Shown: positions 1-41,139 of the stretch, one piece after another
How positions within the stretch are numbered: position 1 is the first letter of the stretch
Layout of the letters: the number at the start of each line of letters is the position of its first letter
Assembly (NCBI GenBank): GCA_937898685.1
Contig: CALEJT010000028.1
Coordinates: 55 to 64,054, forward strand
Reading direction: 5' to 3'
Origin: an uncultured Gammaproteobacteria bacterium
GTDB lineage: Bacteria; Pseudomonadota; Gammaproteobacteria; Pseudomonadales; Pseudohongiellaceae
DNA: 64,000 bases
The notes under the pieces: generated by a model
Database searches by the model: none
The model's input: the letters and a program-made list of their open reading frames with translations, nothing else
What the model was told of the DNA's origin: nothing
Made by a program: the position numbers and the translations under genes

Positions 1-1
1 T

Positions 2-157
2 TTAACCTGGTGCCGCCCGACGGGCAGGGTACAACAGGCGAGCCCGGTGAGTTTTAACGGGTCGGCCCCGAGCGAGCCTTCCCGCGATCTCGTTCTGTAT
101 GACGATGGCAATCACTGGTTTACGAGCATCCCGGTGGCCATCGCTCGCTGCGCCTAA
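2..157 (+). CDS. 3' end of an unidentified CDS entering from the left edge (partial)
   Basis: The frame is open from position 2 to TAA at 155-157. It shows the same strong G/C third-position bias as the confirmed genes. No family recognised. An imperfect inverted repeat (about 144-169) spans the stop codon. Confidence 0.3.
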   Translation, partial: LTWCRPTGRVQQASPVSFNGSAPSEPSRDLVLYDDGNHWFTSIPVAIARCA

Positions 158-371
158 TTAGGCAGCGAGAGCGTAAGTTTCGTCGTTGGCAACTATTTAA
201 GTTGCATAGATTGATTTACGAGAGTCTATACCCTCTCGACATGCACCTCAGGTTTTGTAACCGGCGTCGAATCCAAAACGCCCCCGAGTGGGTCGGCGAT
301 GCTAACACAACTCACGCATCACTTCTCGGTGATGAAAACATCGCGTTGAGTCAGATGTGGGGGCGGAGGCT

Positions 372-404
372 CAAAAGACAACAGGCACCGAGGTGCCTGT
401 TGTC
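372..404 (-). terminator. Rho-independent terminator of the DUF6152 operon
   Basis: A 12-bp perfect stem (377-388 pairs with 393-404). On the minus-strand transcript it is followed by CTTTTGA. It lies 22 nt downstream of the stop of the 426-845 gene. Confidence 0.75.
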
Positions 405-425
405 ATGTCCATTGCGGTGAGTCGC

Positions 426-845
426 TTACTTGTTCTTTTCCTGGCAGACCTTCTGCGCTTCACCCACGTCGCAGTAGTACTGGCCGTTGGCCATTCTGAT
501 CGTGTAGAAGCGGCCACCGGGCTTGCCGTTGGCGTAGGGGCTGACGGTGAACTCGACCTCGTCGCCTACGTTGAAGTTCTTGACGTCGAAGCCGCGCCGA
601 GTGAGGTGCACCTTGCTGGTGAACTCGATGCCCCAGAGTTCCGAGGAGCCGTTTTCGGTGGGCACATCGACGAAGATCCAGACGTGGGGGTTGGTCCACT
701 GCACTTCAGTGATCTTGCCGACGTGGGTGACCTTTTTCGTCTGGTCGAACATCGAGAAGGAGTGATGCGCCAGCGCAGTGCTGACGGGCAGGCCCAGTAA
801 TAGCAAGCTCAGGACGTAAGGGACGGGCGTTTTCATTGTTCTCAT
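426..845 (-). CDS. Exported small protein, DUF6152-like
   Basis: 139-aa ORF. Sec signal peptide ends in TALA, so the predicted mature N-terminus is HHSFSMFD. It carries a WTNPHVW motif and a C-terminal Cys pair (YYCDVGEAQKVC). This fits my recollection of the DUF6152 family. An alternative ATG lies at 836. Confidence 0.8.
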   Translation of the reverse strand: MRTMKTPVPYVLSLLLLGLPVSTALAHHSFSMFDQTKKVTHVGKITEVQWTNPHVWIFVDVPTENGSSELWGIEFTSKVHLTRRGFDVKNFNVGDEVEFTVSPYANGKPGGRFYTIRMANGQYYCDVGEAQKVCQEKNK

Positions 846-897
846 ACCTCTGTTGTAGGCGCCGTCCTGGCATGGGCGGCGATGGGTCTGTCTAAAG

Positions 898-1572
898 TCA
901 ATCCGTGCGACGTTCGTCGCGCAATATCTTGATCAGCTGATTGGCGGTGATCACGACCTCCGGCAGCTCCGGCACACCTTCATTGCGCACGACACGGTAG
1001 CGGCCATTGACCACCAAAGTGGGCAGACGGCTGATGCCGGCGGCCTTGGTTTTCTGCTCCGCCTCTGCCAGGGCTGCGGCTACTTCCGGCGAGTTCCAGG
1101 CCTGCTCGAAGGCGTCCGCGGCCACACCGAGTTCGGCAAAGAAAGCTCTTGCCTGATCGACCGTGTTCAGCGGCTGATGCTTCTCGTGAATGTGGCGAAA
1201 CGCGGCCGAATGCGCCTCATCATCGATCTTCAACTGCACTGCGGTGTAATAGATCTGCGCGTGCAACTTCATGACCGGATTCCAGATCGCCGGCATTCGA
1301 TGCAGGACGAGGTCACCACGCACTTCGCCACCCCAGTAGGACATCATCGGCTCGAACTCGCTACACACCGGGCAGCCGTACCAGAACACGTCGAGCATCT
1401 CGATGATCTCGGGTGGCGTGTCGGTCGCGATCGGCGGATCGATGCGCTCGTAGTGCTTGCCCTCATCCATTGGACGTGGCTGCGCCAGCGCGATGGCGGA
1501 AACGAACAGCAGGACGGCCAGGAGGGCAACCTGTCGCAAGCTCAGCGGAAGCAAGGTGTGTGGCGTTTGCAT
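898..1572 (-). CDS. DsbA-family thiol:disulfide oxidoreductase paralogue (CPVC active site)
   Basis: 224-aa ORF with a signal/anchor segment (LLAVLLFVSAIALAQP). Thioredoxin-fold motif WYGCPVCSEFEP with DsbA-like length and layout. It lies 52 nt upstream of the DUF6152 gene on the same strand. Confidence 0.85.
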   Translation of the reverse strand: MQTPHTLLPLSLRQVALLAVLLFVSAIALAQPRPMDEGKHYERIDPPIATDTPPEIIEMLDVFWYGCPVCSEFEPMMSYWGGEVRGDLVLHRMPAIWNPVMKLHAQIYYTAVQLKIDDEAHSAAFRHIHEKHQPLNTVDQARAFFAELGVAADAFEQAWNSPEVAAALAEAEQKTKAAGISRLPTLVVNGRYRVVRNEGVPELPEVVITANQLIKILRDERRTD

Positions 1573-1598
1573 GTAAGGCTCCGCGCAGTCTGCGCCAC

Positions 1599-2375
1599 TT
1601 AGAAATCTGCCTGCGTCTGGCCGTTTTCATCGACCGGATGACGGTCGTTCTCGTCACAGATGTACTCGAGCATTTCCCAGGTGCGGTCGCGACGGAAGGT
1701 GTGGCTCAGGCGCCAGGGCTCTTCGAGTACGTTGGGATCGGTGAAGGTGAAATCCAGATGCAGGATGTCAGGGTTGTCCTTGTCGAGGTAGAGACGCTCT
1801 TCGATGACGAGGTCGGCGCTGTTGTAGACGCCGGCTTTGCCGAGGCGCTGGCCGGGACGTACGTTGCGGGTTTCGACCACGAGCACGTCGCCTTCCCAGT
1901 GGCCGCGGGAATCACCGAAATACTTCGGTTCCGGCTCTTCGGGGAAGGGGCGGCCATCGGTGAAGATGCGGCGTACCATCATGTGTGCTTCCTGCATCAC
2001 TGTGATCTTGCCGGGAGTGAACAGGAATTCGAGGCTGTAGGGCATGGTCATGAAATACGGCATGCCCGGCGGTTCACAGTTGTTCGGGCCTTCCGGAATT
2101 TCGTAAGTGGGATCGGCGGCGATCTTGGCCATTTCCCGTTCATAGAATTCCTTGGCGGCACCTTTCAGTTTTGGCTCTTCGGGTGGCGTGGAACCGAAGG
2201 CGAAGGCGGGGAACCACAGTCCGCGGAAGTCGGGCAACTTGTCCAGTTCGGCATAGGAAGCATCCGGAGCGTTGGCCGGATAGACCACGCCGTCCTGGGC
2301 AAGCGCTGGCTGAGCCAGAACAGAACCAGTCAGTACGGAAAGAGCGAGAAGGGTGTGTCGAGCGGTGAAGGTCAT
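1599..2375 (-). CDS. Exported protein of unknown function
   Basis: 258-aa ORF. Signal peptide LSVLTGSVLAQPALA then QDG. Exactly two Cys in the mature part (NNCEPPG, EYICDEN). No domain recognised. High GC3. Only 26 nt separate it from the DsbA-like gene. Confidence 0.75.
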   Translation of the reverse strand: MTFTARHTLLALSVLTGSVLAQPALAQDGVVYPANAPDASYAELDKLPDFRGLWFPAFAFGSTPPEEPKLKGAAKEFYEREMAKIAADPTYEIPEGPNNCEPPGMPYFMTMPYSLEFLFTPGKITVMQEAHMMVRRIFTDGRPFPEEPEPKYFGDSRGHWEGDVLVVETRNVRPGQRLGKAGVYNSADLVIEERLYLDKDNPDILHLDFTFTDPNVLEEPWRLSHTFRRDRTWEMLEYICDENDRHPVDENGQTQADF

Positions 2376-2598
2376 CTGGCAAGCCTCGATCTACTAATTA
2401 TTGTGGGCGGCAATCCGCTGCGTAGGCGCGGGATGATAATAACGTCCAACTGGTCAGTTCAATAGAAGCGCTGCCGGAATAGGTTGGAACTTGGTTCAGG
2501 ATTGGCGCGTGGGCCTCACATTGCTCGTTGAGGGGGGCAGATAAAGCGGCTACCATCACCGGGCTTGAGCAAGGGGACTGCCAAGGCGGAGCTAGACT

Positions 2599-4239
2599 AT
2601 GCCTGGGAATGATTACGATAAGAAGCAAGCGACCCTTTCCATGATGTCAATCATCGAACGTTTGAACAGAGGGCGAAAATCCCACGCGGTGCCTGTCGTG
2701 CGCACCTTGGTGGGCGCATGTGCGTTGCTGTTGTCACTGCATGTGCAGGGCAACGAGGCCATTCAACGCGCCGCCGAAGAAGGCGATCTCGCAGCACTCG
2801 AGCAGATGCTGCGAGCCGAAGAAAATGTGAATACGCCAATGCTCGATGGATCCACTGCGTTGCATTGGGCCGCATTGCGCGATCAGGCAGAAGTGGTTTC
2901 CTTCCTCCTCGAACGTGGCGCTGATGTCGAAGCGCGCAACCGCAATGGTGTATATCCGCTTTATCTCGCTGCGCTCAATGGCAGTGCCAAAGTCACGTCG
3001 CTGTTACTCGAAGCTGGCGCTGATCCCAACGCAGAACTTCCCAATGGCGAAACGGTGCTCATGACGGCAGCGCGCACCGGTGCGCCGGAAGTACTGGAAT
3101 TGCTGCTGTCTTATGGCGCGCTCGTCGACAAGCGTGATCCTGAATTCCAGCAAACCGCTTTGATGATCGCTGCACGCGAGAATCATCCCGCAGCTGTGGA
3201 TGTGTTGCTGCGCTACGGCGCAGAAGTGAATCTGCATACGCGCATCGGTCCGCCGATCGTCCACATTCCGCCCTGTAAAGGTACGGGCTGCGGTTCCGAA
3301 GGTGTGGGCATCAACCGCAGTGGTGTGCCTGATCGCGGCGAACGTTACGAACAAAAAGGCGGGATGACTGCATTGCTGTATGCAGCTCGCGAGGGCAACA
3401 CCGAAGTTGCGCGCAGTCTGCTCAAAGCCGGTGCCGATATCGAAGCGACCGAAGTCAATGGCATCGGGCCTTTGTTGATGGCGGTACTGAACAACCAGCA
3501 GGACACCGCCTATCTCCTGCTCGAACATGGCGCCAACGTCAACGTCGAAGATTTCTGGGGCAGAACGCCACTCTATGCGGCTGTCGACTATCGCAACCTC
3601 GATCTCAACAGCTCCATCGAAGACAGTCCCACCACCAACTACGTCGATCGTGAGCCGATCTTTGCGTTGATCAAACGCCTGCTCGATGCCGGTGCTGACG
3701 TAAATGCCCAAACTCGTGAATGGCCGCCCGAGAAGAAATGGCTCTATGCACTGAACGATGTGTCCTGGGTCGACATGACTGGCCGTACGCCTTTCATTCG
3801 CGCTGCGGAATCCGGTGATGTGCGTGTCATGCGCCTGCTTTTGGAATATGGCGCCGACCCCCATATCACTACTTATGGTGGAACCAACGCCCTGATGGCT
3901 GCTGCTGGTGTCAACTGGACCGTGGCGCAGACCTATACCGAATCCGACGAATCATCGCTCGAAGCGGTGCGTTTGTGCCTGGAGCTGGGTCTGGATGTGA
4001 ATGCCACCAACTCCATGGGCTTGACGGCGCTCCTCGGCGCTGCGAACCGCGGGTTCAACGACATGATCGTTCTCTTGGCTGAAAACGGGGCTCGTCTGGA
4101 TGTACGCGATGCCGTCGGACGCACCGCCCTGCGCTGGGCCGAAGGCGTGTTCCTGGCGGCGGTCGGTGCCCAGCAGAAGCCGGAAACCATCGCACTCCTG
4201 AAGGAGCTGCTGAGTAAGCAGGGTTTGCCGCATGAATAA
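2599..4239 (+). CDS. Exported ankyrin-repeat protein (about 10 repeats)
   Basis: 546-aa ORF with an N-terminal hydrophobic signal (VVRTLVGACALLLSLHVQG). Repeated G-TALH-AA----VV-LLL--GAD-N units, for example DGSTALHWAALRDQAEVVSFLLERGADVEA and GGMTALLYAAREGNTEVARSLLKAGADIEA. Alternative starts at ATG 2641/2644. Confidence 0.9.
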   Translation: MPGNDYDKKQATLSMMSIIERLNRGRKSHAVPVVRTLVGACALLLSLHVQGNEAIQRAAEEGDLAALEQMLRAEENVNTPMLDGSTALHWAALRDQAEVVSFLLERGADVEARNRNGVYPLYLAALNGSAKVTSLLLEAGADPNAELPNGETVLMTAARTGAPEVLELLLSYGALVDKRDPEFQQTALMIAARENHPAAVDVLLRYGAEVNLHTRIGPPIVHIPPCKGTGCGSEGVGINRSGVPDRGERYEQKGGMTALLYAAREGNTEVARSLLKAGADIEATEVNGIGPLLMAVLNNQQDTAYLLLEHGANVNVEDFWGRTPLYAAVDYRNLDLNSSIEDSPTTNYVDREPIFALIKRLLDAGADVNAQTREWPPEKKWLYALNDVSWVDMTGRTPFIRAAESGDVRVMRLLLEYGADPHITTYGGTNALMAAAGVNWTVAQTYTESDESSLEAVRLCLELGLDVNATNSMGLTALLGAANRGFNDMIVLLAENGARLDVRDAVGRTALRWAEGVFLAAVGAQQKPETIALLKELLSKQGLPHE

Positions 4240-6568
4240 AGGTATTGCAGCAATGCGTCTTTCGAAGCTGTGCCTTGCCTTGCTGCTACCGCTGGCAGGG
4301 ACTCTCGCGCAGGCTCAGGGTTTGAATCCCGAGCAAGCGAAACTCATCGATCAATATTGCAGCGAGTGCCATAACCTCGACGATTTCTCGGGCAGTCTCG
4401 CGTTCGAATTGGTCAATCGTGATGCCGTGCACGAAGATGCCGCCACCTGGGAAAAAGTGGTGCGCAAGCTCAATGCAGGGATGATGCCTCCGCCCGGCAA
4501 TCCTCGTCCTTCCGAGGAGCAGCTGCAGGGTTTCGTGCGGGCAGTGACGTCGACCATCGACGCACAGGCGGCCAACAATCCCCAGCCTGGTGCTCCGCTG
4601 CTGCGCCGCCTCAACCGCACCGAATATCAGAACGCCATTCGTGATCTGCTGGATCTGCCGATCGATGCTTCCGAACTGATGCCGGCCGACGATTCGAGCG
4701 GTGGCTTCGACAACGTCGCCAACGTGCTCAGCATCTCGCCGGCTTTGCTCGAGGCCTATATTTCCGCAGCGTCGAAGATCAGCCGTTTGGCTGTGGGCGA
4801 CATGGACACCGTCGCATCAGCGACGACCTATCGCGGTGATGGCCAGTCGCAGGCGCTTCACAAGGAAGGCTTGGCGCTTGGCACTCGCGGCGGCTTGAGC
4901 GCGCGTCACGTGTTCCCGCTCGATGCCGAATACGAACTCAACATCGTGCGCACCGGTGCGAACAGTGCCTTCATGCTCACGCCTTTCGGTGAAGAAGATC
5001 CCGTAGAAGTCGTAATCGACGGCAAACGCGTTGCCCTGCTGCAGCCCAACGATCGTGGCACCATCCGTCTGCCCATCAGCGCAGGTGTGCATCAGGTGGA
5101 TGTCGCTTATCTGCCAATGGCACCGGCCTTGGGAGTGGATGATCTGCACTCCGTCTGGGCCACCAGCACGGCCATCAACTCTCTGTCGATTCGTGGTCCT
5201 CTGGACCCGACCGGCCGCGGCGATACGCCGTCACGCCGCAAGATTTTCATTTGCCAACCTCAGTCGACCAGAGAAGAAGCCGCCTGCGCCGAACGCATCC
5301 TGCGGCAGCTGGCAACGCGTGCCTATCGCAAGCCGGTCGATCAGGAATCGCTCGACATTCTCATGTCTTTCTATCAGGACGGTCGCGCCAAGGCCGATTT
5401 CGATACCGGTATTCAGTATGCACTGGCACGACTGTTGGTCGACCCGCAGTTCATCTTCCGCTTCGAAGCCGAGCCTGAAGATCTGGCGCCCGGTGCCATC
5501 TATGCGGTGAACGACTACGAACTGGCGAGTCGCTTGTCGTTCTTCCTTTGGAGCAGCATCCCAGACGATCGTCTGTTGGAGCTGGCCGGTCAGGGCAAGC
5601 TGAAGGATGAGTCTGTCCTCGATGCCGAAGTGAAGCGCATGTTGGCCGATCCCAAGGCTGAGTCGCTCGTCACGAACTTTGCGACCCAATGGTTGTCGCT
5701 GCGCAAACTGGATTCCGCCAACCCGGTATCGGTGGAGTTCGATGGCGCGCTACGCGAGGCGATGCTGAAAGAAACGCAACTGCTGTTCGGGCACATCCTG
5801 CGTGAAGACGCGAGCGTCGTCGAACTGCTGGATGCGGATTACACCTTCGTCAACGAACGTCTGGCCAAGCATTACGGGTTGCCCGGAATCCGCGGCAGCC
5901 ACTTCCGTAAGGTTGCCCTGCCGGAAGGTTTCCGCCGCGGCCTGCTCGGTCACGCCAGTATCCTGACCATCACGTCTGCGCCCAACCGTACTTCGCCGGT
6001 GATTCGCGGCACCTGGGTGCTGGAGAACCTGATGGGCACGCCGCCGCCTTCGCCGCCGCCCGGTGTCGAGACCAATCTCGAAGTCAGTGTTCCCGGTGGC
6101 CAGACCTTGACCATTCGCGAACAATTGGAGCGGCACCGTGCCGATCCCTCCTGTTCGGCATGTCACAGCGTGATCGACCCGCTCGGTTTCGCGCTCGAGA
6201 ACTACGATGCCATCGGCAAGTGGCGTGACGAAGTGGGTGGGGCGCCGGTCAATACCAGTGCTACTCTGTGGGACGGCAGCGCCATCGATGGCCCCGAAGA
6301 TCTCCGTAAGGCCTTGCTGGCACGGGAAGAAATGTTCGTGGAAGCGTTCATAGAGAAGATGATGACCTATGCTCTGGGGCGCCGCGTCGAGTACTTCGAC
6401 ATGCCGGCGATCCGCAAAGTGGCGGCAGCCGCAGAGAAAGACGGCTATCGTTTCAGCGCAGTGATCAAGGGAATCGTCGATGCCGACGCATTCAGAATGC
6501 GCACGAAGGAAGTAAAGGATCAGGCCCAGGTGACGCTGGCGCCATCAGCAGGACAGGTTGAACGATAA
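4232..6568 (+). CDS. DUF1592/DUF1595/DUF1588/DUF1585-type exported protein with two CxxCH motifs
   Basis: 778-aa ORF with signal peptide LLLPLAGTLAQAQG. CSECH at 4358-4372 and CSACH at 6152-6166. Family-typical motifs: DPQFIFRFE, FFLWSSIPDDRLLELA, FATQWLSL, TSPVIRGTWVLENLMGTPPPSPPPGV and DPLGFALENYDAIGKWR. Alternative start at ATG 4253. Confidence 0.85.
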   Translation: MNKGIAAMRLSKLCLALLLPLAGTLAQAQGLNPEQAKLIDQYCSECHNLDDFSGSLAFELVNRDAVHEDAATWEKVVRKLNAGMMPPPGNPRPSEEQLQGFVRAVTSTIDAQAANNPQPGAPLLRRLNRTEYQNAIRDLLDLPIDASELMPADDSSGGFDNVANVLSISPALLEAYISAASKISRLAVGDMDTVASATTYRGDGQSQALHKEGLALGTRGGLSARHVFPLDAEYELNIVRTGANSAFMLTPFGEEDPVEVVIDGKRVALLQPNDRGTIRLPISAGVHQVDVAYLPMAPALGVDDLHSVWATSTAINSLSIRGPLDPTGRGDTPSRRKIFICQPQSTREEAACAERILRQLATRAYRKPVDQESLDILMSFYQDGRAKADFDTGIQYALARLLVDPQFIFRFEAEPEDLAPGAIYAVNDYELASRLSFFLWSSIPDDRLLELAGQGKLKDESVLDAEVKRMLADPKAESLVTNFATQWLSLRKLDSANPVSVEFDGALREAMLKETQLLFGHILREDASVVELLDADYTFVNERLAKHYGLPGIRGSHFRKVALPEGFRRGLLGHASILTITSAPNRTSPVIRGTWVLENLMGTPPPSPPPGVETNLEVSVPGGQTLTIREQLERHRADPSCSACHSVIDPLGFALENYDAIGKWRDEVGGAPVNTSATLWDGSAIDGPEDLRKALLAREEMFVEAFIEKMMTYALGRRVEYFDMPAIRKVAAAAEKDGYRFSAVIKGIVDADAFRMRTKEVKDQAQVTLAPSAGQVER

Positions 6569-6583
6569 GAGAGAGGCGTGGAT

Positions 6584-7906
6584 ATGTTCATTACGAAGAA
6601 ACATCTGTCTCGTAGGACCTTGTTGCGGGGTGCCGGTACGGTCCTGGCGCTGCCGCTGCTCGACGCCATGGTGCCCGCGCTGGCGCAGGCTCCTGCGCCT
6701 ACTCCGCGTCTCAGCGCCATCTACATTCCGCATGGTGCGACCATGGCCAAGTGGACGCCGGCCGCGGAAGGCAAGAACTTCCCGATTTCCGAGATTCTGT
6801 CGCCCCTCGAGCCCTATCGCGAATACCTGAACGTCATCAGCGGTCTGGCCAACGAGCCGGTTGGTCCCTGGCCGGGCGAAGACACGGGTGGGGCTCAGAA
6901 CCACTCGCGCGCCGCGGCTGCGTTCCTGACGGCTGCGCACCCAGTAAAAGGTGACAAGGCCTACGTCGGTGAATCACTGGACCAGGTTGTCGCCCAGACG
7001 CTTGGCCGTGATACCCCGCTGCCCTCGCTGGAGCTGGCCATCGAGCCCTCCGGTCTCACCTGCGGCACCAACTTCACCTGCGCCTACAGCAATACGCTGT
7101 CGTGGAAAACGCCGACACTGCCGATGCCGATGGAGAACAATCCGCAGCTCGTGTTCGAGCGTCTCTTCGGCGAAGGCGCTACCGACGAGCAGCGCCGCGA
7201 ACGTCGTCAGCTTTCCGCCAGCATGCTCGACTCGATTCGCGAGCAGGTGCAGGCGCTCAACAAAGGTCTACCCGCTGCCGACCGTTCCCGTTTGGATGAC
7301 TATCTGCAGGAAGTCCGTGAAATCGAGCGCCGCGTACACTTGGTGGATGAGCGTCTGAGCGAAGATCTCGATCTGCCGGCTGCACCCTCGGGTATTCCGC
7401 GCGACTTCGAGGATCACGTCGAACTGATGTTCGACCTGCAGGTGCTCGCATTCAAATCCGAAATCACGCGCATCAGCACGCTGATGCTCTCGCGCGAGAA
7501 CAGCAATACCCGTTATCCGGGCAGCGGTGTGGCCGAGGGCTTCCACAACGCTTCGCACCATTCGAACGAACAGAAGAACAAAGATCAGTTTGCCGTGATC
7601 AACCGCTACCACATCACCGTGCTGAAGAAGTTCTTCGATAAGCTTGCCGCAACTCCGGATGGTGACGGTACCTTGCTGGATAACTCCTTGGTGCTCTACG
7701 GCAGCAGCCTCAGCGATGCCAACGAACATAACTTCGATCCGCTGCCCATCATCCTCATGGGCAAGGCCGGTGGTCGCATCGAAGGCAACCGCCACCTGCG
7801 CTTCCCCGACCATACGCCGCTGGCCAACCTGCATTTGGCCTTGCTGGAGAAATTCGGCATTCACCGCGACAGCTTCGGCAACAGCACGGGAATGTTGGAC
7901 GTATAA
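6584..7906 (+). CDS. DUF1552-family protein with twin-arginine export signal
   Basis: The ORF-track start is GTG 6578. ATG 6584 sits 8 nt after an AGAGG Shine-Dalgarno. Tat motif SRRTLLRGAG. Family-typical C-terminal region LVLYGSSLSDANEHNFDPLPIILMG. It starts 10-16 nt after the DUF1592 stop. Confidence 0.85.
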   Translation: MFITKKHLSRRTLLRGAGTVLALPLLDAMVPALAQAPAPTPRLSAIYIPHGATMAKWTPAAEGKNFPISEILSPLEPYREYLNVISGLANEPVGPWPGEDTGGAQNHSRAAAAFLTAAHPVKGDKAYVGESLDQVVAQTLGRDTPLPSLELAIEPSGLTCGTNFTCAYSNTLSWKTPTLPMPMENNPQLVFERLFGEGATDEQRRERRQLSASMLDSIREQVQALNKGLPAADRSRLDDYLQEVREIERRVHLVDERLSEDLDLPAAPSGIPRDFEDHVELMFDLQVLAFKSEITRISTLMLSRENSNTRYPGSGVAEGFHNASHHSNEQKNKDQFAVINRYHITVLKKFFDKLAATPDGDGTLLDNSLVLYGSSLSDANEHNFDPLPIILMGKAGGRIEGNRHLRFPDHTPLANLHLALLEKFGIHRDSFGNSTGMLDV

Positions 7907-7923
7907 CCGTTCTCCAAATGAAG

Positions 7924-7954
7924 AAAACCCGGCCTTGTGCCGGGTTTTCTTTTT
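7924..7954. terminator. Bidirectional rho-independent terminator
   Basis: AAAACCCGGC-cttgt-GCCGGGTTTT followed by CTTTTT. An A-tract on the other side lets it work for both convergent genes (6584-7906 and 7970-9370). Confidence 0.85.
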
Positions 7955-7969
7955 CCGACAGAAAGTTTC

Positions 7970-9370
7970 TTAAAGTGTCAGCAGGAAAGCGACCAAGTCT
8001 TCCTTCTCCTGATCCGTCAGATTCACACCCAGCACCAGGTTGAAGAACTCCACGGTGTCGGCGAGCGTGAGCAAACGACCATCATGTAAGTAGGGCGGTG
8101 AATCCTTGATGCCTCGGAGCGTGAAGGTCTTGATCGGACCATCGGCACTCGCGAGACGTCCGAGAATTTCGCGTTCCTCGAAGAAGCGCTCGGTGCGCAG
8201 GTTATGCATCAGGTTGTCGGTGAAGTAGGGCGGTACATGACAGCTGGCGCAGCGGCCCTTGTTGTGGAAGACGTCTTCACCGCGCAGCTCCTGCTCCGTG
8301 GCCAATGTCGGATCGAGCCGACCGAACACATCGAGTTTCGGCGCAGGCGGAAAATCCAATAACTCTTGCACTTCCGCCATGTTGTGCACCTCACTGCCAC
8401 GTTCGAGGACGCGCACGCCCTTCTTGGTTGCGACCACCGGGTCGCCGTCGAAATAAGCTGCACGCTGTTCGAACTCGGTGAAGTCTTCGATGGTCTTCAA
8501 TGCGCGCTGCGAGCCAAATAGACGCTGCACGTTCACGCCACGCAGTGAAGGCGTATCGATGCGGTGCCGGTGATTTTGCGGGCGAATGTCGCCGACGAGG
8601 TGAGTTGCGGCATTGGTGTGGCCGTTCACATGGCAGTCGAAACAGGTGACGCCCATGCTGGGTTCCGGTGAACGACGGTCCGCAGTGGAGTTGAACTGCT
8701 GTTGCATCATTGGTGTCACCAATAGCCGGAAACCATCGAGTTGTTTAGGGTTGAGGATGCCGTTGAAGAGCTCATAGAAGTTCGCGAGCGTCACCACCTG
8801 GCCTTGCGAAACGTCACCCAGGTCAGGGCGCGTCGTCAGATAGATGGCAGGTGGGAACTCGGGCAGAAAATGATCCGGCAACTGATAACTGAGGTCGAAG
8901 CGAGTCAGGTCCCTTCCATCCTGCTCCCGGATGCGATCGATATGGAATTGCGGAAACAGCATGCCGCCTTCGGCATGATTTTCGTGGGGCAGGGGGTAAA
9001 AACCGGCTGGCCAGAGATTGCCGTCTTTGATCTGCTGCGGCGTCATCGCCGCCAAGTCCTGCCATGAGGTCCCGGCAGGCAGCCGAACTCGTACTCCTCC
9101 CTGTATCGGCTTGCCCCGACCACTCGAAGTGACGCCAGGAATGGGGTTGTCTCGCAGGTCATAACGTTCTTCGAGCAGGCGTCGGAAGTTGTTTTCGATA
9201 CCTGCCTTTTCGCCTTCCATGCGTCGTCGCACCTCGTCGAAAGGTTGTGGCTCGACGACGGGGGTGTAGCTGCTGGGCGGCGCTTCCGCGGCGTTGGCGG
9301 ATGAGATCGCAATGGTGAGGAGAGGGACGGATAGCGCAGCAGAAACTAGCGTGAAGGGCGTGGTTTTCAT
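7970..9370 (-). CDS. Diheme cytochrome c peroxidase/MauG-family protein with a long N-terminal extension
   Basis: 466-aa ORF with signal peptide ending SSANA-AEA. Two CxxCH motifs (CFDCH, CASCH) about 130 residues apart in the C-terminal half. CCP-like segments DTPSLRGV and LRGIKDSPPYLHDG. AAGGAG Shine-Dalgarno lies before the ATG. Confidence 0.8.
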   Translation of the reverse strand: MKTTPFTLVSAALSVPLLTIAISSANAAEAPPSSYTPVVEPQPFDEVRRRMEGEKAGIENNFRRLLEERYDLRDNPIPGVTSSGRGKPIQGGVRVRLPAGTSWQDLAAMTPQQIKDGNLWPAGFYPLPHENHAEGGMLFPQFHIDRIREQDGRDLTRFDLSYQLPDHFLPEFPPAIYLTTRPDLGDVSQGQVVTLANFYELFNGILNPKQLDGFRLLVTPMMQQQFNSTADRRSPEPSMGVTCFDCHVNGHTNAATHLVGDIRPQNHRHRIDTPSLRGVNVQRLFGSQRALKTIEDFTEFEQRAAYFDGDPVVATKKGVRVLERGSEVHNMAEVQELLDFPPAPKLDVFGRLDPTLATEQELRGEDVFHNKGRCASCHVPPYFTDNLMHNLRTERFFEEREILGRLASADGPIKTFTLRGIKDSPPYLHDGRLLTLADTVEFFNLVLGVNLTDQEKEDLVAFLLTL

Positions 9371-9607
9371 CTTGGCGCTCCTTTTCTGTGAGGTAGGGCC
9401 TCAGCAGTATAGGCCTAGGTGTTGCGCCAATTGATATGTGATGAGTGATCCAAATTGCAAATTCACCGCAAATATTGTGGTGTCTTCGTGATTACAGAGG
9501 CACGCTGGTATTTATGTGAACTGCAGAGCCGATATGTACCCAGCCTGCTATCAGAAGAGCTGGCGCTTAGCGTTATAGGGAAGGTCCCGATGAGCTTGAG
9601 CGGAGAA

Positions 9608-10090
9608 TCAGCGACGCGCGGCGTGTGACATCATGCGGCGCTTGGTGATGTTCCACTCGCGTTCGCGCTCTACTTCGCGCTTGTCGTAGTCGTGCTTGCC
9701 CTTGGCAAGAGCGATCTCGCATTTCACGAGATGCCCCTTCCAATACATCTTGGTGCAGATGCAGGTATGACCTTTCTGCTGGACTCCGGAAAAGATGCGA
9801 GCGAGCTCCTTGCGATTCAGCAGGAGTTTGCGCGTGCGGGTGGGGTCTGCCACGTAGTGGGTGCTGGCACTGATCAAGGGATTGATCTGTGCGCCGAACA
9901 ACCAGGCTTCGCCGTTCTTGACGAGGATGTGGCTGTCGACGAGCTGCACTTTCTTTTCGCGCAGGCTTTTGACTTCCCAACCCAGGAGTGCAATGCCTGC
10001 CTCGAAACGTTCTTCGAGGAAGTAGTCGTGGTTCGCCTTGCGGTTGACGACGATCGTGTTGTCGTCGTGTTTTACTTTCTTCTTAGCCAT
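9608..10090 (-). CDS. smpB: SsrA-binding protein SmpB
   Basis: 160 aa. The N-terminus [32 protein letters not shown] and the overall length match SmpB. Confidence 0.95.
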
Positions 10091-10207
10091 GCGCGCGGAT
10101 TATAGGCAGCTCGTCGCCGCCTTCCTATCGGATATTGGTCTTTGCAAATGCAACAGGTGCGTTATATGGTGCCGCCGTTCTTGATTTCGAGTCCTTGAGT
10201 CTCCTGC

Positions 10208-11997: not shown

Positions 11998-13671
11998 TCA
12001 AGCTCCAAGTCCCAGTAGTTCTTGTGCATGCGCCAACGACTGGCGTGATTGTTCATCTCCCCCCAGCATGCGCGAGATTTCCGAGATCCGTTGCGAACGA
12101 TCCAGCGCCACCAAGGTGGTGCTGGTCGTCTTGCCGTCCGACGACTTGCTCACCAAAAGATGCTGATCGGCCTGCGCCGCCACCTGTGCCTGATGCGTGA
12201 CGCACAGCACCTGACCGCGTTTGCCGAGCTCGTGCAATAGTTCACCTACCGCGCGCGCAGTGGCGCCGCCGATGCCTACGTCCACTTCGTCGAATACCAG
12301 CGCGGGGATGCGGCTGGTCTGTGCCGTGACCACCTGGATCGCGAGGCTGATGCGCGACAGCTCGCCACCGGAGGCGATCTTGATCAGCGGCTTCGCCGGC
12401 TGACCGGGGTTGGTGCTCACCAGGAATTCGACGTGGTCATGGCCGCGCGCCGAGGGCGTGCCGTTGGGATCGGTATTCAGTGCTACTTCGAAGCGAGAGC
12501 TGGCCATGCCGAGCTCGGCGAGACGAGCATTCACTGCCGTGCTCAAACGTTTACCGGCCTGGGCGCGCGCCTTGCTGAGCGCAGCAGCCAGTTTGTGATA
12601 CGCCTGCAAGGCCTTTTCATGCTGAGCCTGCAAAGCGGCAAGTCTGCCATCTGCGCCGCTGATGCTGGCGAGGCGGTCGCGTAGGGTTCGAGCGTGTTCG
12701 TAGAGCGCTTGCGGTTCCACGCGGTGCTTGCGCGCCAAGCGGTGGATCAGGCCCAGGCGCTCGTCCACTTCGGCGAGGCGCTCCGGGTTGAGCTCGACAC
12801 GATCGAGTGCCTTGTTCAATACGTGCGAGGCTTCCTCCACCTGGATCAGTGCGCTCGACAGCATGTTGTGCGCTTCGCTGAGCTCGGGCGTCTGGTAGGG
12901 CAGGGTTTCCATCATGCTGCAGGCCCGGCGCAGACTCTGCTCGATGTTGCCCTCGTCCGCCTCGCTGCACAGTTGTACCAGGCCCTGCAGGGCAGTCCTT
13001 GCAGTATCGGCATGACTGAGCTGGGCATGTTCCTGCTCCAGGGCGGGGAGTTCGTTCTCGACCAGGCGTGCCTCGTCCAATTCCTTGACCTGAAAGGTCA
13101 GGAGTTCCACCTGGGCGGCGTCGGCTTGTTGGGCCTGGCTAAGCGCTTCGATTTCCTGGGTGAGCTGACGCAATTCCTGTGCGGCTTCGGCCACCTGGTG
13201 GCTCTGTGCTTCCAGTCCACCAAAGGCGTCCAGCAGACGTTGGTGGGTGGCGACCTTGAGCAGCGACTGATGTTCGTGCTGGCTGTGGATGTCGATCAGC
13301 ATCTCGCCCAGCGTGCGCAGCTCGGCGAGGGTGGTGGGTTGCCCATTGATGTAGGCACGCGAGCGCCCATCTCGACTCAACACGCGCCGCAGGATGCACA
13401 GATCCTCCGCCTCTGGATAATCGTGCTCCTGCAACCATTTGGCAGCTTCGGGCTGCCCTTGGAGGCTGAAGGTGGCGCTGATGTCGGCGCGCTCCTCGCC
13501 GGTGCGGATCACGTCGAGGTCGGCGCGATCGCCCAGAGCGAGGCCCAGTGCGTCCAGCATGATGGACTTGCCGGCGCCGGTCTCACCGGTGATGGCAGTC
13601 ATCCCGGGTTGGAGTTCCAGGTCGAGCTTGGCAACGAGGGCGAAGTTCTGAATCGTGAGCTGTACGAGCAT
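11998..13671 (-). CDS. recN: DNA repair protein RecN
   Basis: 557 aa. N-terminus MLVQLTIQNFALV, Walker A GETGAGKS, a long coiled-coil middle region and C-terminal SGGELSRISLA. Confidence 0.95.
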   Translation of the reverse strand: MLVQLTIQNFALVAKLDLELQPGMTAITGETGAGKSIMLDALGLALGDRADLDVIRTGEERADISATFSLQGQPEAAKWLQEHDYPEAEDLCILRRVLSRDGRSRAYINGQPTTLAELRTLGEMLIDIHSQHEHQSLLKVATHQRLLDAFGGLEAQSHQVAEAAQELRQLTQEIEALSQAQQADAAQVELLTFQVKELDEARLVENELPALEQEHAQLSHADTARTALQGLVQLCSEADEGNIEQSLRRACSMMETLPYQTPELSEAHNMLSSALIQVEEASHVLNKALDRVELNPERLAEVDERLGLIHRLARKHRVEPQALYEHARTLRDRLASISGADGRLAALQAQHEKALQAYHKLAAALSKARAQAGKRLSTAVNARLAELGMASSRFEVALNTDPNGTPSARGHDHVEFLVSTNPGQPAKPLIKIASGGELSRISLAIQVVTAQTSRIPALVFDEVDVGIGGATARAVGELLHELGKRGQVLCVTHQAQVAAQADQHLLVSKSSDGKTTSTTLVALDRSQRISEISRMLGGDEQSRQSLAHAQELLGLGA

Positions 13672-13774
13672 AAGGCCGGCGGGGTGTTCGGATTGCCTGA
13701 TTGTAGTGGAAGCCCTTGCAAATTACCCCTCGCCATCCTGGCGATGAGAGTGGCGAGAGATATGAAGATCGGGC

Positions 13775-13802
13775 CTTGAATCTCAATACCCCGACCCCAT
13801 AT
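13775..13802 (+). promoter_or_regulatory. Sigma-32 (heat-shock) type promoter upstream of grpE
   Basis: CTTGAA (13775-13780), a 14-nt spacer, then CCCCATAT (13795-13802). This matches the E. coli-type consensus CTTGAA-N13-15-CCCCATnT. It lies 49 nt before the grpE ATG. Confidence 0.65.
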
Positions 13803-13850
13803 CGCGCCGAGTTTTATTGACGCTATGTAAACGTAGGGCAGGAGGAAGTG

Positions 13851-14432
13851 ATGGTCGACGAACCGCAGGATAAGGTCAGCCCCGAGGCTGAGACCGCGCA
13901 GGTGGATGCTAACGCACAGGAAGGTGTCCAGCAGGAACCAGCCGCGGGCGAGGTGGATGAGCTGGCCGAGCGCATCCAGGAAGCGGTGAACGCGGCCCTC
14001 GCCGAGCAACGCGACATGGTGTTGCGGGCCCAGGCCGAGTTGCAGACCATGCGTCGCCGTTGCGAAGCGGATGTCGAAAAGGCACACAAATTCGCCTTGG
14101 AAAAATTCAGTGCCGAGCTGCTGTCCGTGGTGGACAACCTCGAGCGAGCCCTGGCGTCCAAGCCGAGCGACAATGTCGATCCCGCCGTGACCGCCTTGTT
14201 CGAAGGCGTGGAACTGACGCTGAAGGGGCTGCTCGACACCTTCGGCAAGTACAACATCCAACAGATCGACCCGCAGGGTGCTCCCTTCGATCCGCAGGAG
14301 CATGAGGCCATCGCCATGGTGCCGAACCCTGCCGTGGAGCCGAACACCGTGGTCGACGTGATGCAGAAGGGCTACTCGCTCAATGGTCGCATCCTGAGAC
14401 CGGCCCGGGTCGTAGTGGCAAAAGCGTCGTAA
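13851..14432 (+). CDS. grpE: Nucleotide exchange factor GrpE
   Basis: GrpE-like sequence ([28 protein letters not shown]...DPQEHEAI). AGGAGG lies 5 nt before ATG 13851. The ORF track starts one codon earlier, at GTG 13848. Confidence 0.95.
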
Positions 14433-14467
14433 GCGGCACGATTCCCCACAAATTTCAGGGATTTCCC

Positions 14468-14495
14468 CTTGAATTCAGTGTGGACGGATCAATAT
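14468..14495 (+). promoter_or_regulatory. Sigma-32-like promoter upstream of dnaK
   Basis: CCCCTTGAA with the -35 core at 14468-14473, a 14-nt spacer, then ATCAATAT (14488-14495). The -35 match is strong and the -10 match is weaker. Confidence 0.45.
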
Positions 14496-14575
14496 AGCCA
14501 GGCAGTTTGACCGCAACTCTCGAGCATAAGAAGCGGTTGAAATAAAACAGAATTTGCAGTCAGCGGAGAGCATAC

Positions 14576-16513
<1,938 letters not shown>

Positions 16514-16545
16514 GGCAGTTCCGCTACGGCGGGTGTAAGTTGATG

Positions 16546-16575
16546 AAAACTGACGGAGGATGCTCCGTCAGTTTT
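16546..16575 (+). terminator. Intercistronic hairpin/partial terminator between dnaK and dnaJ
   Basis: AAAACTGACGGAG-gatg-CTCCGTCAGTTTT. The 13-bp stem ends in a T-run. It lies 33 nt after the dnaK stop and 33 nt before the dnaJ ATG. Confidence 0.6.
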
Positions 16576-16607
16576 CGTGTGTTCGAGAAAAACGATCTGG
16601 AAGCGGC

Positions 16608-18534
<1,927 letters not shown>

Positions 18535-18676
18535 TGAGCTCGAGTGTCGAGAAATACGGAGAAACGGCGCAAAAGGAAATAAGCGTTGGACAAGGCTTTC
18601 TCGGTTTTCATAAAATAGCCGCTCAGTATGAACGGCACTGAGACAGCAACTCTCCAGTTCTTCTACAGGACACCGG

Positions 18677-18714
18677 AAAAAGCGGAATGAGCAACAGGCA
18701 TTCCGCTTTTTTTT
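18677..18714 (+). terminator. Strong rho-independent hairpin between dapB and carA (dapB terminator and/or carA attenuator)
   Basis: AAAAAGCGGAATG-agcaacagg-CATTCCGC followed by eight T (18707-18714). It lies 143 nt after the dapB stop and about 160 nt before carA. Confidence 0.8.
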
Positions 18715-18875
18715 AGGCGCCGCAGATGCGGCCCGCTGTTTAGGTAGTCGTTCAACTCTCTAGCGTTACTGCGTTACCTTGCTTCGGCTTCATTACCATT
18801 TCTGATGGATGGCGGGCGACTGCCCAGGCCAAGCGTAGCGTGCAACTTGCGCTCACAGCTGACGAGGACACAACT

Positions 18876-20048
18876 TTGGCAACAGCTTCGTACAACCCTG
18901 CGCTCCTGGTGCTGGCGGACGGCTCCGTCTTCACTGGTATTTCCATCGGCGCCGAAGGTCTTTCCGTGGGAGAAGTGGTCTTCAACACATCGATGACCGG
19001 CTACCAGGAAATTCTCACCGATCCTTCGTACGCCAAACAGATCGTCACTCTGACCTATCCCCACATCGGCAACACCGGCACCACGCCGGAAGATGACGAG
19101 TCCGACCGCGTCTGGGCCTCGGGACTCGTGATCCGCAATCTGCCCTTGCTCGCCAGCAACTTCCGCAACCGGCAGAACCTCGATGCCTATCTGAAGGAGC
19201 GCAACGTCGTTGCCATCGCCGAAATCGACACGCGCCGCCTCACGCGCCTTCTGCGTGAAAAAGGTGCGCAGAACGGCTGTCTGTTCGCCGGTGCCGAAGT
19301 GGCTGCGGACATCGAAGCTGCGAAGGCCAAAGCTTTGCAGGCCGCACGCGAATTCCCGGGTCTCGTCGGCATGGATCTGGCGAAGGTCGTTTCCTGCAAG
19401 GAGCGCTATGAGTGGCGTGAAGGTTCTTGGAAGCTGGGGCAGGGCCACATTACGCCTGAGCACTCTCCGCATCATGTCGTTGCCTATGACTTCGGCGTCA
19501 AACGCAACATTCTGCGCATGCTGGCAGACCGCGGCTGCCGTGTGACCGTCGTGCCTGCGCAGACCCCGGCCAGCGAAGTGCTGGCCATGAATCCCGATGG
19601 CGTATTCCTCGCCAACGGCCCTGGCGATCCGCAGCCTTGCGATTACGCGATTGCCGCGATTCAGGAAATTCTCAAAACCGACCTGCCTGTGTTCGGCATC
19701 TGTCTCGGCCATCAGCTGCTCGGTCTGGCCTGTGGTGCGCGCACGGTAAAAATGCCCACTGGCCATCACGGTGCGAACCACCCGGTGCAGGACCTCGAGA
19801 CCGGTCGTGTCTACATCACCAGCCAGAACCATGGCTTCGCGGTGGATGAGGCGACTTTGCCCACCAACGTCGTGGCGACGCACAAATCGCTCTTCGACGG
19901 TACCTTGCAGGGCATCCACCTCACCGACAAGCCCGCCTTCGGCTTCCAGGGCCATCCCGAAGCCAGCCCGGGTCCGCACGACATCGCGCCGGTTTTTGAC
20001 CATTTCATCCAACTCATCGAGCAGCGCAAGCAAACTGCCCGCAAGTGA
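18876..20048 (+). CDS. carA: Carbamoyl-phosphate synthase small (glutaminase) subunit CarA
   Basis: [38 protein letters not shown] and the GICLGHQ amidotransferase site. TTG 18876 has GAGGA 8 nt upstream and fits homologue N-termini. The ORF track starts at GTG 18840. Confidence 0.93.
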
Positions 20049-41023: not shown

Positions 41024-41120
41024 ACCCATTGCCCTGCGCAGAAGTCGGCGCCGTTCTGCTGCCCACCGAACAGTTTGCGTAAAAAACCTCAAAGGCTGTT
41101 GCGTTCTCTCAAATGATAAA

Positions 41121-41139
41121 GATAATGCGAATCGTTCTC
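41121..41139 (+). promoter_or_regulatory. Fur box overlapping a candidate promoter of the TonB-dependent receptor
   Basis: GATAATGCGAATCGTTCTC matches the consensus GATAATGATAATCATTATC at 15/19 positions. GATAAT (41121-41126) can serve as the -10, with TTGCGT (41099-41104) 16 nt upstream as the -35. Confidence 0.65.

Follow-up and report, generated by a model that had tools for sequence, protein, structure and literature searches.

Conserved exported module of five to six uncharacterized genes, and an unrelated di-heme gene, between smpB and ssrA in a gammaproteobacterium

Introduction

DUF1592-type cytochromes and DUF1552 proteins form an abundant, unexplained pair in Planctomycetes and Verrucomicrobia. 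PSCyt3 genes usually adjoin a family of unknown genes, with nothing known of their function, and the PSCyt2 genes are partnered by another family, likewise unknown (He et al. 2017, PMC5615132). We found no functional study of DUF1552, DUF1592, DUF6152, PSCyt2/3, DUF1501, DUF1549, or DUF1553 in the searchable literature. Among described periplasmic systems, KatB needs the ankyrin protein AnkB in order to be active (Howell et al. 2000, cited by PMC12754779). Here we analyze a gammaproteobacterial form of the DUF1592-type/DUF1552 pair that has fixed extra partners, encoded at positions 426-9370 of a 64,000-nucleotide (nt) stretch of contig CALEJT010000028.1 from an uncultured member of the Pseudohongiellaceae. 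The whole stretch is called the window throughout, and its seven genes of interest are lettered A to G along 426-9370.

The locus is a conserved, uncharacterized exported module of five to six genes, accompanied by an unrelated di-heme gene, and offers an entry to an unknown family. We lean modestly toward reading it as a composite of two units, the pair A-C and the trio D-E-F with or without B, between which there would be a division of labor, and to which G is unrelated. Our confidence in any specific chemistry is much lower than in this two-unit picture.

Results

The genes on which the argument turns are the following.

426-845, minus strand: gene A, exported DUF6152 protein (Pfam PF19649)
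898-1572, minus strand: gene B, exported DsbA-like thiol-disulfide oxidoreductase paralogue with CPVC (Pfam DSBA)
1599-2375, minus strand: gene C, exported protein of 258 amino acids (aa), predicted beta-barrel with one conserved disulfide (AlphaFold2 [AF2] model, conservation)
2599-4239, plus strand: gene D, exported ten-repeat ankyrin protein with a PCKGTGCGSEG loop (Pfam Ank_2)
4232-6568, plus strand: gene E, exported PSD3-PSD5-PSD4-PSCyt3-PSD2 protein with two c-type heme motifs (Pfam)
6584-7906, plus strand: gene F, DUF1552 (HXXSHH) protein exported by twin-arginine translocation (Tat) (Pfam PF07586)
7970-9370, minus strand: gene G, exported di-heme protein related to bCCP/MauG/MbnH (motifs, profile search)

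The original prediction, made from the letters of this DNA, had described seven exported products of a single heme/thiol-redox cluster, and its inventory was sound. The seven open reading frames (ORFs), their coordinates and spacing, and the 223-nt divergent region between C and D (2376-2598) were all recovered; A and B are separated by 52 nt and B and C by 26 nt, D and E share 8 nt, with the stop codon of D lying over the start of E, and 15 nt separate E from F, for which an alternative in-frame GTG start is possible at 6578. All seven products carry export signals, six of them Sec-like N-termini recognized by eye (positive n-region, hydrophobic core, AxA-type site) and that of F containing SRRTLLRG. 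The four CxxCH motifs (located by script at residues 43 and 641 of E and 243 and 374 of G), the CPVC of B, and the roughly ten ankyrin repeats of D are likewise present, and Pfam, NCBIfam, and searchable papers assign no function to the cluster products, as had been said of the cluster families. Pfam placed A in DUF6152, B in DSBA, D among the ankyrins, E in the PSD/PSCyt3 families, and F in DUF1552, and gave no family for C or G.

We compared 138 related loci. L001-L005 are the same locus in metagenome contigs, and the 133 foreign cluster loci (L006-L138) comprise a C-anchored set of 52 species-representative genome contigs (L006-L057) and an F-anchored set of 80 metagenome contigs (L059-L138) and a single genome locus (L058). 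All seven proteins were mapped onto both sets, and genes were called with the known genes masked. Three loci with G homologues (L139-L141) and two loci from Joint Genome Institute (JGI) sample 3300042654 (L142 and L143, for which sharing a sample does not imply a joint genome) were added.

D, E, and F form an invariant, obligate trio. E lies upstream of F in 49 of the 49 loci with enough upstream DNA, and D is present upstream of E in all 39 F-anchored loci for which the upstream DNA suffices. The trio also occurs without a neighboring A-C, in soil metagenome contigs whose 10-kb flanks are complete, in a Rariloculaceae genome of 4.7 Mb with its A-C 2.1 Mb away, and in L143, where F is 91% identical. 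Paralogous E-F pairs (43 to 47% identity) are again found with an ankyrin gene, in the order E-F-ank.

Each member of the trio has a distinctive and strongly conserved architecture. D (546 aa) matches Pfam Ank_2 at 1.6e-62, with 6 to 7 ankyrin units detected by Pfam and ten 'G-A/L-x-V/P-D/N' repeat ends discernible by eye; C226, C231, and the surrounding PCKGTGCGSEG loop are invariant in 62 homologues. E contains PSD3, PSD5, PSD4, PSCyt3, and PSD2 at 85.8, 59.6, 152.7, 119.7, and 82.4 bits, respectively, against cut-offs of 23 to 34. These domains correspond to DUF1587/1595/1592/1588/1585, and they are preceded by an N-terminal cytochrome c domain (Cytochrome_CBB3 match of 25.1 bits, under its cut-off of 27). 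Both CxxCH motifs of E and an extra pair, C341/C352, are conserved in 97 to 100% of 68 homologues; the second motif, CSACH at residue 641, falls inside the PSCyt3 match (568-667) and is kept in 97 to 99% of them. The sequence of E gave chance-level matches only against all PDB chains.

F, the DUF1552 gene directly 3' of E on the same strand, matches PF07586 at 294 bits, and the RR of its signal is invariant in 89 homologues. Ten histidines (H50, H107, H119, H278, H321, H325, H326, H343, H382, and H404, which include those of HNASHHS and of D378-x3-H382) and a cysteine pair, C160/C166, are conserved in 97 to 100% of the same 89 homologues. By their conservation, H50, D100, H107, H321, H325, H326, D378, and H382 could form a metal site. 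In a Foldseek search with the AF2 model of F (predicted local distance difference test [pLDDT] score 64, predicted template modeling [pTM] score 0.68), the best 13 matches, and most of the top 50, were enzymes of the alkaline phosphatase superfamily, among them LtaS/LtaP, sulfatases, phosphopentomutase, YejM, and alkaline phosphatase. We take this as a fold-level hint, and F is accordingly described below only as having a predicted alkaline-phosphatase-superfamily fold.

A and C form an obligate pair. A adjoins C in 49 of 51 C-anchored loci, both exceptions being contig ends, and three natural A-C fusions were found, with A first in P0113 and P0368 and the DUF6152 part following the C-like part in P0505. 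Because such fusions exist, A and C may act as a physical pair. Diverged extra A-C pairs (25 to 40% identity) occur within the same loci.

A matches PF19649 at 95.9 bits (gathering score 27). In an alignment that takes in paralogues down to 27% identity, nothing but H-H, N-P-H, and three glycines is invariant, and HHSF follows the AxA site in 71 of the 75 family members with a recognizable motif. The predicted mature N-terminus, His-His-Ser-Phe, together with NPH is therefore a candidate metal site. Neither the sequence nor the profile of A gave anything but chance-level matches against all PDB chains, and the same was true of C.

C belongs to a large family without a model: 10,352 representative clusters (50% identity) were found at E<=1e-3, yet C itself has no Pfam or NCBIfam match even at an E value of 5, and a relaxed Pfam scan of 20 homologues returned nothing but the DUF6152 half of a fusion. 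Its AF2 model (pLDDT 78, pTM 0.73) has eight consecutive strands between residues 115 and 231 and weak matches of the FABP/CRABP type (E 3e-4, template modeling [TM] score 0.28 on the query and ~0.5 on the target), and C100 and C240 are invariant in 75 sequences. C is thus predicted to be a beta-barrel, weakly calycin-like, with one conserved disulfide.

The wider C family includes tandem duplications (450 to 530 aa) and a fusion to a polyhydroxybutyrate (PHB)-depolymerase/feruloyl-esterase-type domain (P0501, 888 aa), and a tannase/feruloyl-esterase gene is a frequent neighbor in Pseudohongiellaceae loci. Another recurrent neighbor encodes an exported 615-aa protein with an N-terminal cytochrome c (CAACH) and a beta-propeller of the pyrroloquinoline quinone (PQQ)-dehydrogenase type (L029, 7457-9304, minus strand). 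Its gene stands beside A-C or B in 36 loci, which fits a periplasmic electron-transfer setting, and does so also in loci without D-E-F (L019, L021, L048); the gene is absent from the 64-kb window.

B is optional and travels with D-E-F. It was found in 17 of 51 C-anchored loci, lying beside D in Pseudohongiellaceae-type loci and in L143 and inside the A-C operon in the window and in L006. B matches PF01323 (DSBA) at 42.1 bits (cut-off 25.6), and its CxxC (CPVC, residue 67) does not vary among 28 homologues. It reaches only 56.3 bits against the NCBIfam DsbA equivalog NF008198, whose cut-off is 279, and is therefore a paralogue rather than the housekeeping orthologue. A conserved nonheme cysteine pair is present in each of C, D, E, and F, and in close orthologues of A; these pairs supply a simple reason for a private DsbA paralogue, and B probably makes the disulfides of all these proteins. 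The earlier suggestion that thiol redox is part of the chemistry of the cluster was not supported, B being best read as a dedicated disulfide-forming helper.

The two units are linked to each other in many loci. Among the 39 informative C-anchored loci, 34 have D-E-F no more than 10 kb from A-C; in the F-anchored set, 9 of the 19 long loci have A-C close to D-E-F, or 11 when diverged copies are counted. At least five gene orders relate A-C to D-E-F, including a divergent order (e.g., L012, L018, L035), a convergent order after F (L070, L085, L087, L107), a colinear order A-C-B-D-E-F (L034), and two further arrangements, E-F-A-C in L008 and, built on a paralogous E-F, E-F-ank-x-A-C in L047. The linkage is also found away from smpB, as in Steroidobacteraceae loci. 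Linkage that survives rearrangement, in different surroundings, argues for a functional tie, and the frequent absence of one unit shows that the tie is not obligatory.

Two candidates from these neighborhoods were set aside. A recurrent 900-aa neighbor first considered as a TonB receptor resembles, by eye, a PAS/histidine-kinase hybrid and is inconsistently placed. A distant E-like fragment beside A-C in an acidobacterial metagenome-assembled genome (MAG), L050, was not counted; what by eye resembles the gene of a cytoplasmic luciferase-like monooxygenase lies between them.

The most serious alternative is that A-C, D-E-F, and B do unrelated jobs, the smpB-ssrA gap merely collecting cargo whose order relatives then inherit. 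The cargo of the gap does vary by lineage (G alone, A-C alone, or A-C with D-E-F), both units also occur alone, and a single family, in which other genes are syntenic as well (for a metallo-beta-lactamase-fold protein, an M20 peptidase, and a tannase), supplies many of the linked loci. Against this reading, the linkage persists through several rearrangements and away from smpB, and B, which sits inside the A-C operon in the window and beside D elsewhere, bridges both units. We consider mere juxtaposition rather unlikely and retain the two-unit composite.

For that composite we propose the following division of labor. F would be a catalytic metalloenzyme, loaded with its metal in the cytoplasm and exported folded by Tat. 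E, made via the Sec route and the cytochrome c maturation (Ccm) route, would carry electrons through its two c-type hemes between the substrate or metal site of F and the respiratory chain. D, which would be translationally coupled to E, might scaffold or mature the E-F complex, by analogy with AnkB for KatB. A-C would be a two-protein unit for binding a small ligand or metal ion and handing it on, B would form the disulfides of its partner proteins, and the system as a whole would perform a periplasmic reaction, coupled to electron transfer, in which an ester or oxyanion is the substrate. Only tentatively, then, do we suggest that the trio, A-C, and the private DsbA constitute an undescribed, widespread periplasmic system in which an alkaline-phosphatase-fold metalloenzyme and c-type hemes are served by a His-tipped metal protein and a barrel that supply substrate or metal.

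N-terminal-histidine copper sites occur in CopC and in lytic polysaccharide monooxygenases (LPMOs), and a second alternative dispenses with organic chemistry altogether: the locus would handle periplasmic metal, copper being the prime candidate, with A as a His-brace-like metallochaperone, C as its partner, and E-F using or delivering the metal. The only invariant side chains of A are its two N-terminal histidines and the histidine of NPH, a pattern that resembles those copper sites; C has a Met-rich stretch, GMPYxMTMPYS, in which M109 is invariant; and F has its ten conserved histidines. The Met-rich stretch is, however, not conserved in many C homologues, and in the 20-kb neighborhoods neither Pfam nor NCBIfam gave a metal-transport or cupredoxin domain, nor were copper-resistance genes (cop, cus, or pco) or a metal-responsive regulator seen. 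A Fur box in the divergent control region was considered and rejected, since no site there matches at more than 11/19. We regard a purely metal-handling role as improbable and prefer the two-unit composite with F as a putative enzyme.

G is an independent gene, unrelated to the conserved module. None of the 133 foreign cluster loci contains it, not even L006, in which C is 85% and F 88% identical and smpB abuts F directly. In a sister organism, L142 (smpB 86% and G 81% identical), the order is smpB-G-tmRNA (transfer-messenger RNA) and the gap is otherwise empty, while the closest B-D-E-F copy, from the same sample (L143), lies between ruvX and a pilT-like gene. Three close relatives thus display three states of the gap, which makes G and the cluster separate occupants of it. 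The 120 best homologues of G are 69 to 82% identical and come from Porticoccaceae, Nevskiales, Spongiibacteraceae, Microbulbifer, Saccharophagus, and Thauera, and in Microbulbifer, Thauera, and a Porticoccaceae MAG (71 to 74% identity; L139-L141) their neighbors are unrelated to the cluster and to each other. G also has its own ribosome-binding site and a 237-nt upstream region.

By profile, G reads as a divergent member of the bacterial di-heme peroxidase/MauG superfamily. Its two CxxCH motifs are 131 residues apart, and the profile of its C-terminal heme domain matches 3o5c at E 1.4e-9 and 1iqc at E 3e-9. There is no Pfam match at E<=0.01, CCP_MauG included, the highest NCBIfam score, 35 bits, falls far below the cut-offs of 150 to 444, and the N-terminal ~230 residues match nothing. 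A conserved methionine of the C-terminal heme domain is an axial ligand in CcpA; in the alignments with 3o5c and 1iqc, the Met of '...NTM...' / '...ETM...' corresponds to a Phe of G ('VEFF').

That G belongs with the other six genes to one extracytoplasmic heme/thiol-redox module, for example for peroxide, metal, or protein-modification chemistry, is very improbable: all seven products are exported, G converges on the terminator of F, members of its superfamily can modify partner proteins, and lineages without G have the cytochrome c-PQQ propeller in the cluster, for which G could be a local substitute, but its absence from 133 of 133 foreign loci, its presence without the cluster in L142, its homologues among unrelated neighbors, and its own upstream signals all speak against it. 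The single module of the original prediction has accordingly to be divided. Most of its genes do recur together, in several orders and far beyond chance, and the neighborhood comparison that it proposed bore this out for D-E-F and A-C; G, which carries two of the four hemes, never accompanies the cluster in a foreign locus, and the remainder is two separable units.

The boundaries and control signals of the locus are as follows.

1-285, minus strand: 5' part of ssrA (tmRNA), the gene being truncated by the window edge (Rfam RF00023)
377-404, minus strand: intrinsic terminator closing the C-B-A unit (folding)
2433-2462, minus strand: sigma-70-like promoter for C-B-A, TTGAAC, 18 nt, TATCAT (promoter scan)
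7920-7952, both strands: bidirectional intrinsic terminator common to F and G (folding)
9608-10090, minus strand: smpB, right boundary of the variable gap (Pfam SmpB in the L001-L005 gene calls)

The tmRNA match scores 122.4 bits (E 4.7e-48; model positions 1-294 of 374), and a complete 362-nt tmRNA gene with the tag ANDETYALAA is present at the same locus in metagenome contigs L001 (12091-12452) and L002. Since window positions 1-285 are tmRNA, the cluster fills the gap between smpB and ssrA; the earlier account had rightly placed the cluster beside smpB and had missed the tmRNA on its other side. Of the 51 C-anchored loci, 14 have smpB beside the cluster or A-C. Another 11 lineages have tmRNA after the cluster or after A-C alone, which marks the gap as a long-standing variable site rather than a recent insertion point. 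The description of the cluster as lineage-specific accessory content was for this reason half right: the smpB-ssrA position is common to at least 11 other lineages, and the GC content of the cluster (0.57 to 0.62) is no different from that of the flanks.

Several other occupants of this region were seen. Pseudohongiellaceae-type loci have, between F and smpB, where G stands in the window, a gene for an exported 291-aa protein of the metallo-beta-lactamase fold (L029, 47-922, minus strand, and 26 further loci). On the far side of ssrA, a P4-type integrase and serine-recombinase island follows its 3' end in L002, L003, and L004 (~12616-19625), and in L001 chemotaxis genes follow ssrA without that island, a case of strain-level variation at the ssrA 3' end. 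A similar integrase (415 aa) follows tmRNA in L014, L027, L037, L041, and L056.

The terminator at 377-404 has a 12-bp GC-rich stem followed by UUUU (folding free energy [dG] -27.3 kcal/mol, z -5.5, 0 of 200 shuffles as good), and the hairpin at 7920-7952, which had been foreseen as a bidirectional terminator between F and G, folds on both strands with a 13- to 14-bp stem and U-tracts on both sides (dG -22.4 kcal/mol on the plus and -22.8 kcal/mol on the minus strand, z -4.7 and -4.4, no shuffle as good). TTGAAC-18-TATCAT (2462-2433, minus strand), upstream of C, is the only promoter-like match in 1-10200; its hexamers and 18-nt spacing recur in L006 with a different spacer sequence, an alignment made by eye at a place where the automatic alignment was shifted. 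No regulator gene was found within the conserved gene set of the compared loci.

Long antisense ORFs of up to 350 aa, such as 1413-2465 (plus strand) and 3004-3864 (minus strand), overlap real genes in GC-rich DNA and were rejected as genes. Elsewhere in the window and unrelated to the cluster, two overlapping Fur-box-like sites, which agree with GATAATGATAATCATTATC at 14 and 15 of 19 positions, occupy 41115-41139, shortly before the start of an 818-aa ORF at 41222-43678 (plus strand), possibly an iron-regulated receptor gene.

Discussion

Several observations weigh against the composite that we favor and against the chemistry proposed for it. Of 19 long F-anchored loci, 10 have no A-C at >=45% identity inside 10 kb (8 of 19 when divergent copies are counted as A-C), and D-E-F is missing in 5 of 39 A-C loci; with one unit missing in so many loci, the two may function separately. 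The metagenome loci were counted without dereplication, and a single family, Pseudohongiellaceae, supplies many of them, which makes the counts look more independent than they are. Co-transcription is suggested by gene spacing only, and the candidate metal site of A by conservation alone. The calycin-like match of C is marginal (root mean square deviation ~9 Å). The fold matches of F are weak (best E 7e-4, TM ~0.4, for a model of pLDDT 64), searches of all PDB chains with its sequence and profile returned chance-level matches and no solved relative, and no invariant residue could be singled out as its nucleophile. We infer every step of the proposed chemistry, and the data indicate no substrate.

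If the proposed system is real, it would provide the first functional handle on the PSCyt/PSD families and on the C family. The latter, with ~10,000 clusters and no Pfam model, deserves a family definition in any case, and the smpB-ssrA gap can be recognized as a variable cargo site in these bacteria. Testable hypotheses follow regarding complex formation, heme and metal content, and ester or oxyanion substrates.

Described systems provide several points of comparison. DsbL is a dedicated DsbA paralogue encoded with arylsulfate sulfotransferase, and B is likewise a second DsbA-like gene beside periplasmic proteins with presumed disulfides (C, D, E, and F); unlike dedicated DsbA systems, the cluster encodes no DsbB/DsbI-like membrane partner. 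The HHSF that follows the AxA site of A, together with its NPH, would be compatible with a site of the histidine-brace type. In G, the C-terminal heme domain can be aligned with chains of the CcpA type, and MbnH (6e1c) and the gamma subunit of hydrazine synthase give weaker alignments; what sets G apart from bCCP/MauG is its unmatched N-terminal extension of ~230 residues and the lack of a CCP_MauG match.

KatB-AnkB, as far as the citing source describes it, also couples an exported ankyrin protein in one operon with a heme protein whose activity requires it. AnkB is, however, much smaller than D and its partner is a catalase, whereas D partners a c-type cytochrome and a DUF1552 protein, and the resemblance is an analogy only. 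The pairing of PSCyt2/PSD1 (DUF1549/DUF1553) with DUF1501 follows the same logic as E-F, a multidomain heme c protein standing beside an exported enzyme-like protein, but the Pfam families differ on both sides, and no DUF1501, DUF1549, or DUF1553 is present here. DUF1501 belongs to the alkaline-phosphatase/sulfatase clan, which parallels the fold predicted for F.

The closest relatives of the locus remain the PSCyt3/PSD and DUF1552 pairs of Planctomycetes and Verrucomicrobia, with which E shares the same five-domain set and the DUF1552 gene directly next to it. The pair described here differs from them in belonging to Gammaproteobacteria, in always having an exported ten-repeat ankyrin protein as its third gene, and in its frequent link to a DUF6152/beta-barrel pair and a DsbA paralogue; the searchable literature on PSCyt3/DUF1552 contains no mention of these ankyrin, DUF6152/beta-barrel, and DsbA partners. 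Relative to that literature, the obligatory ankyrin partner, the link to DUF6152 and the beta-barrel protein, the private DsbA, and the predicted placement of DUF1552 among known folds are new.

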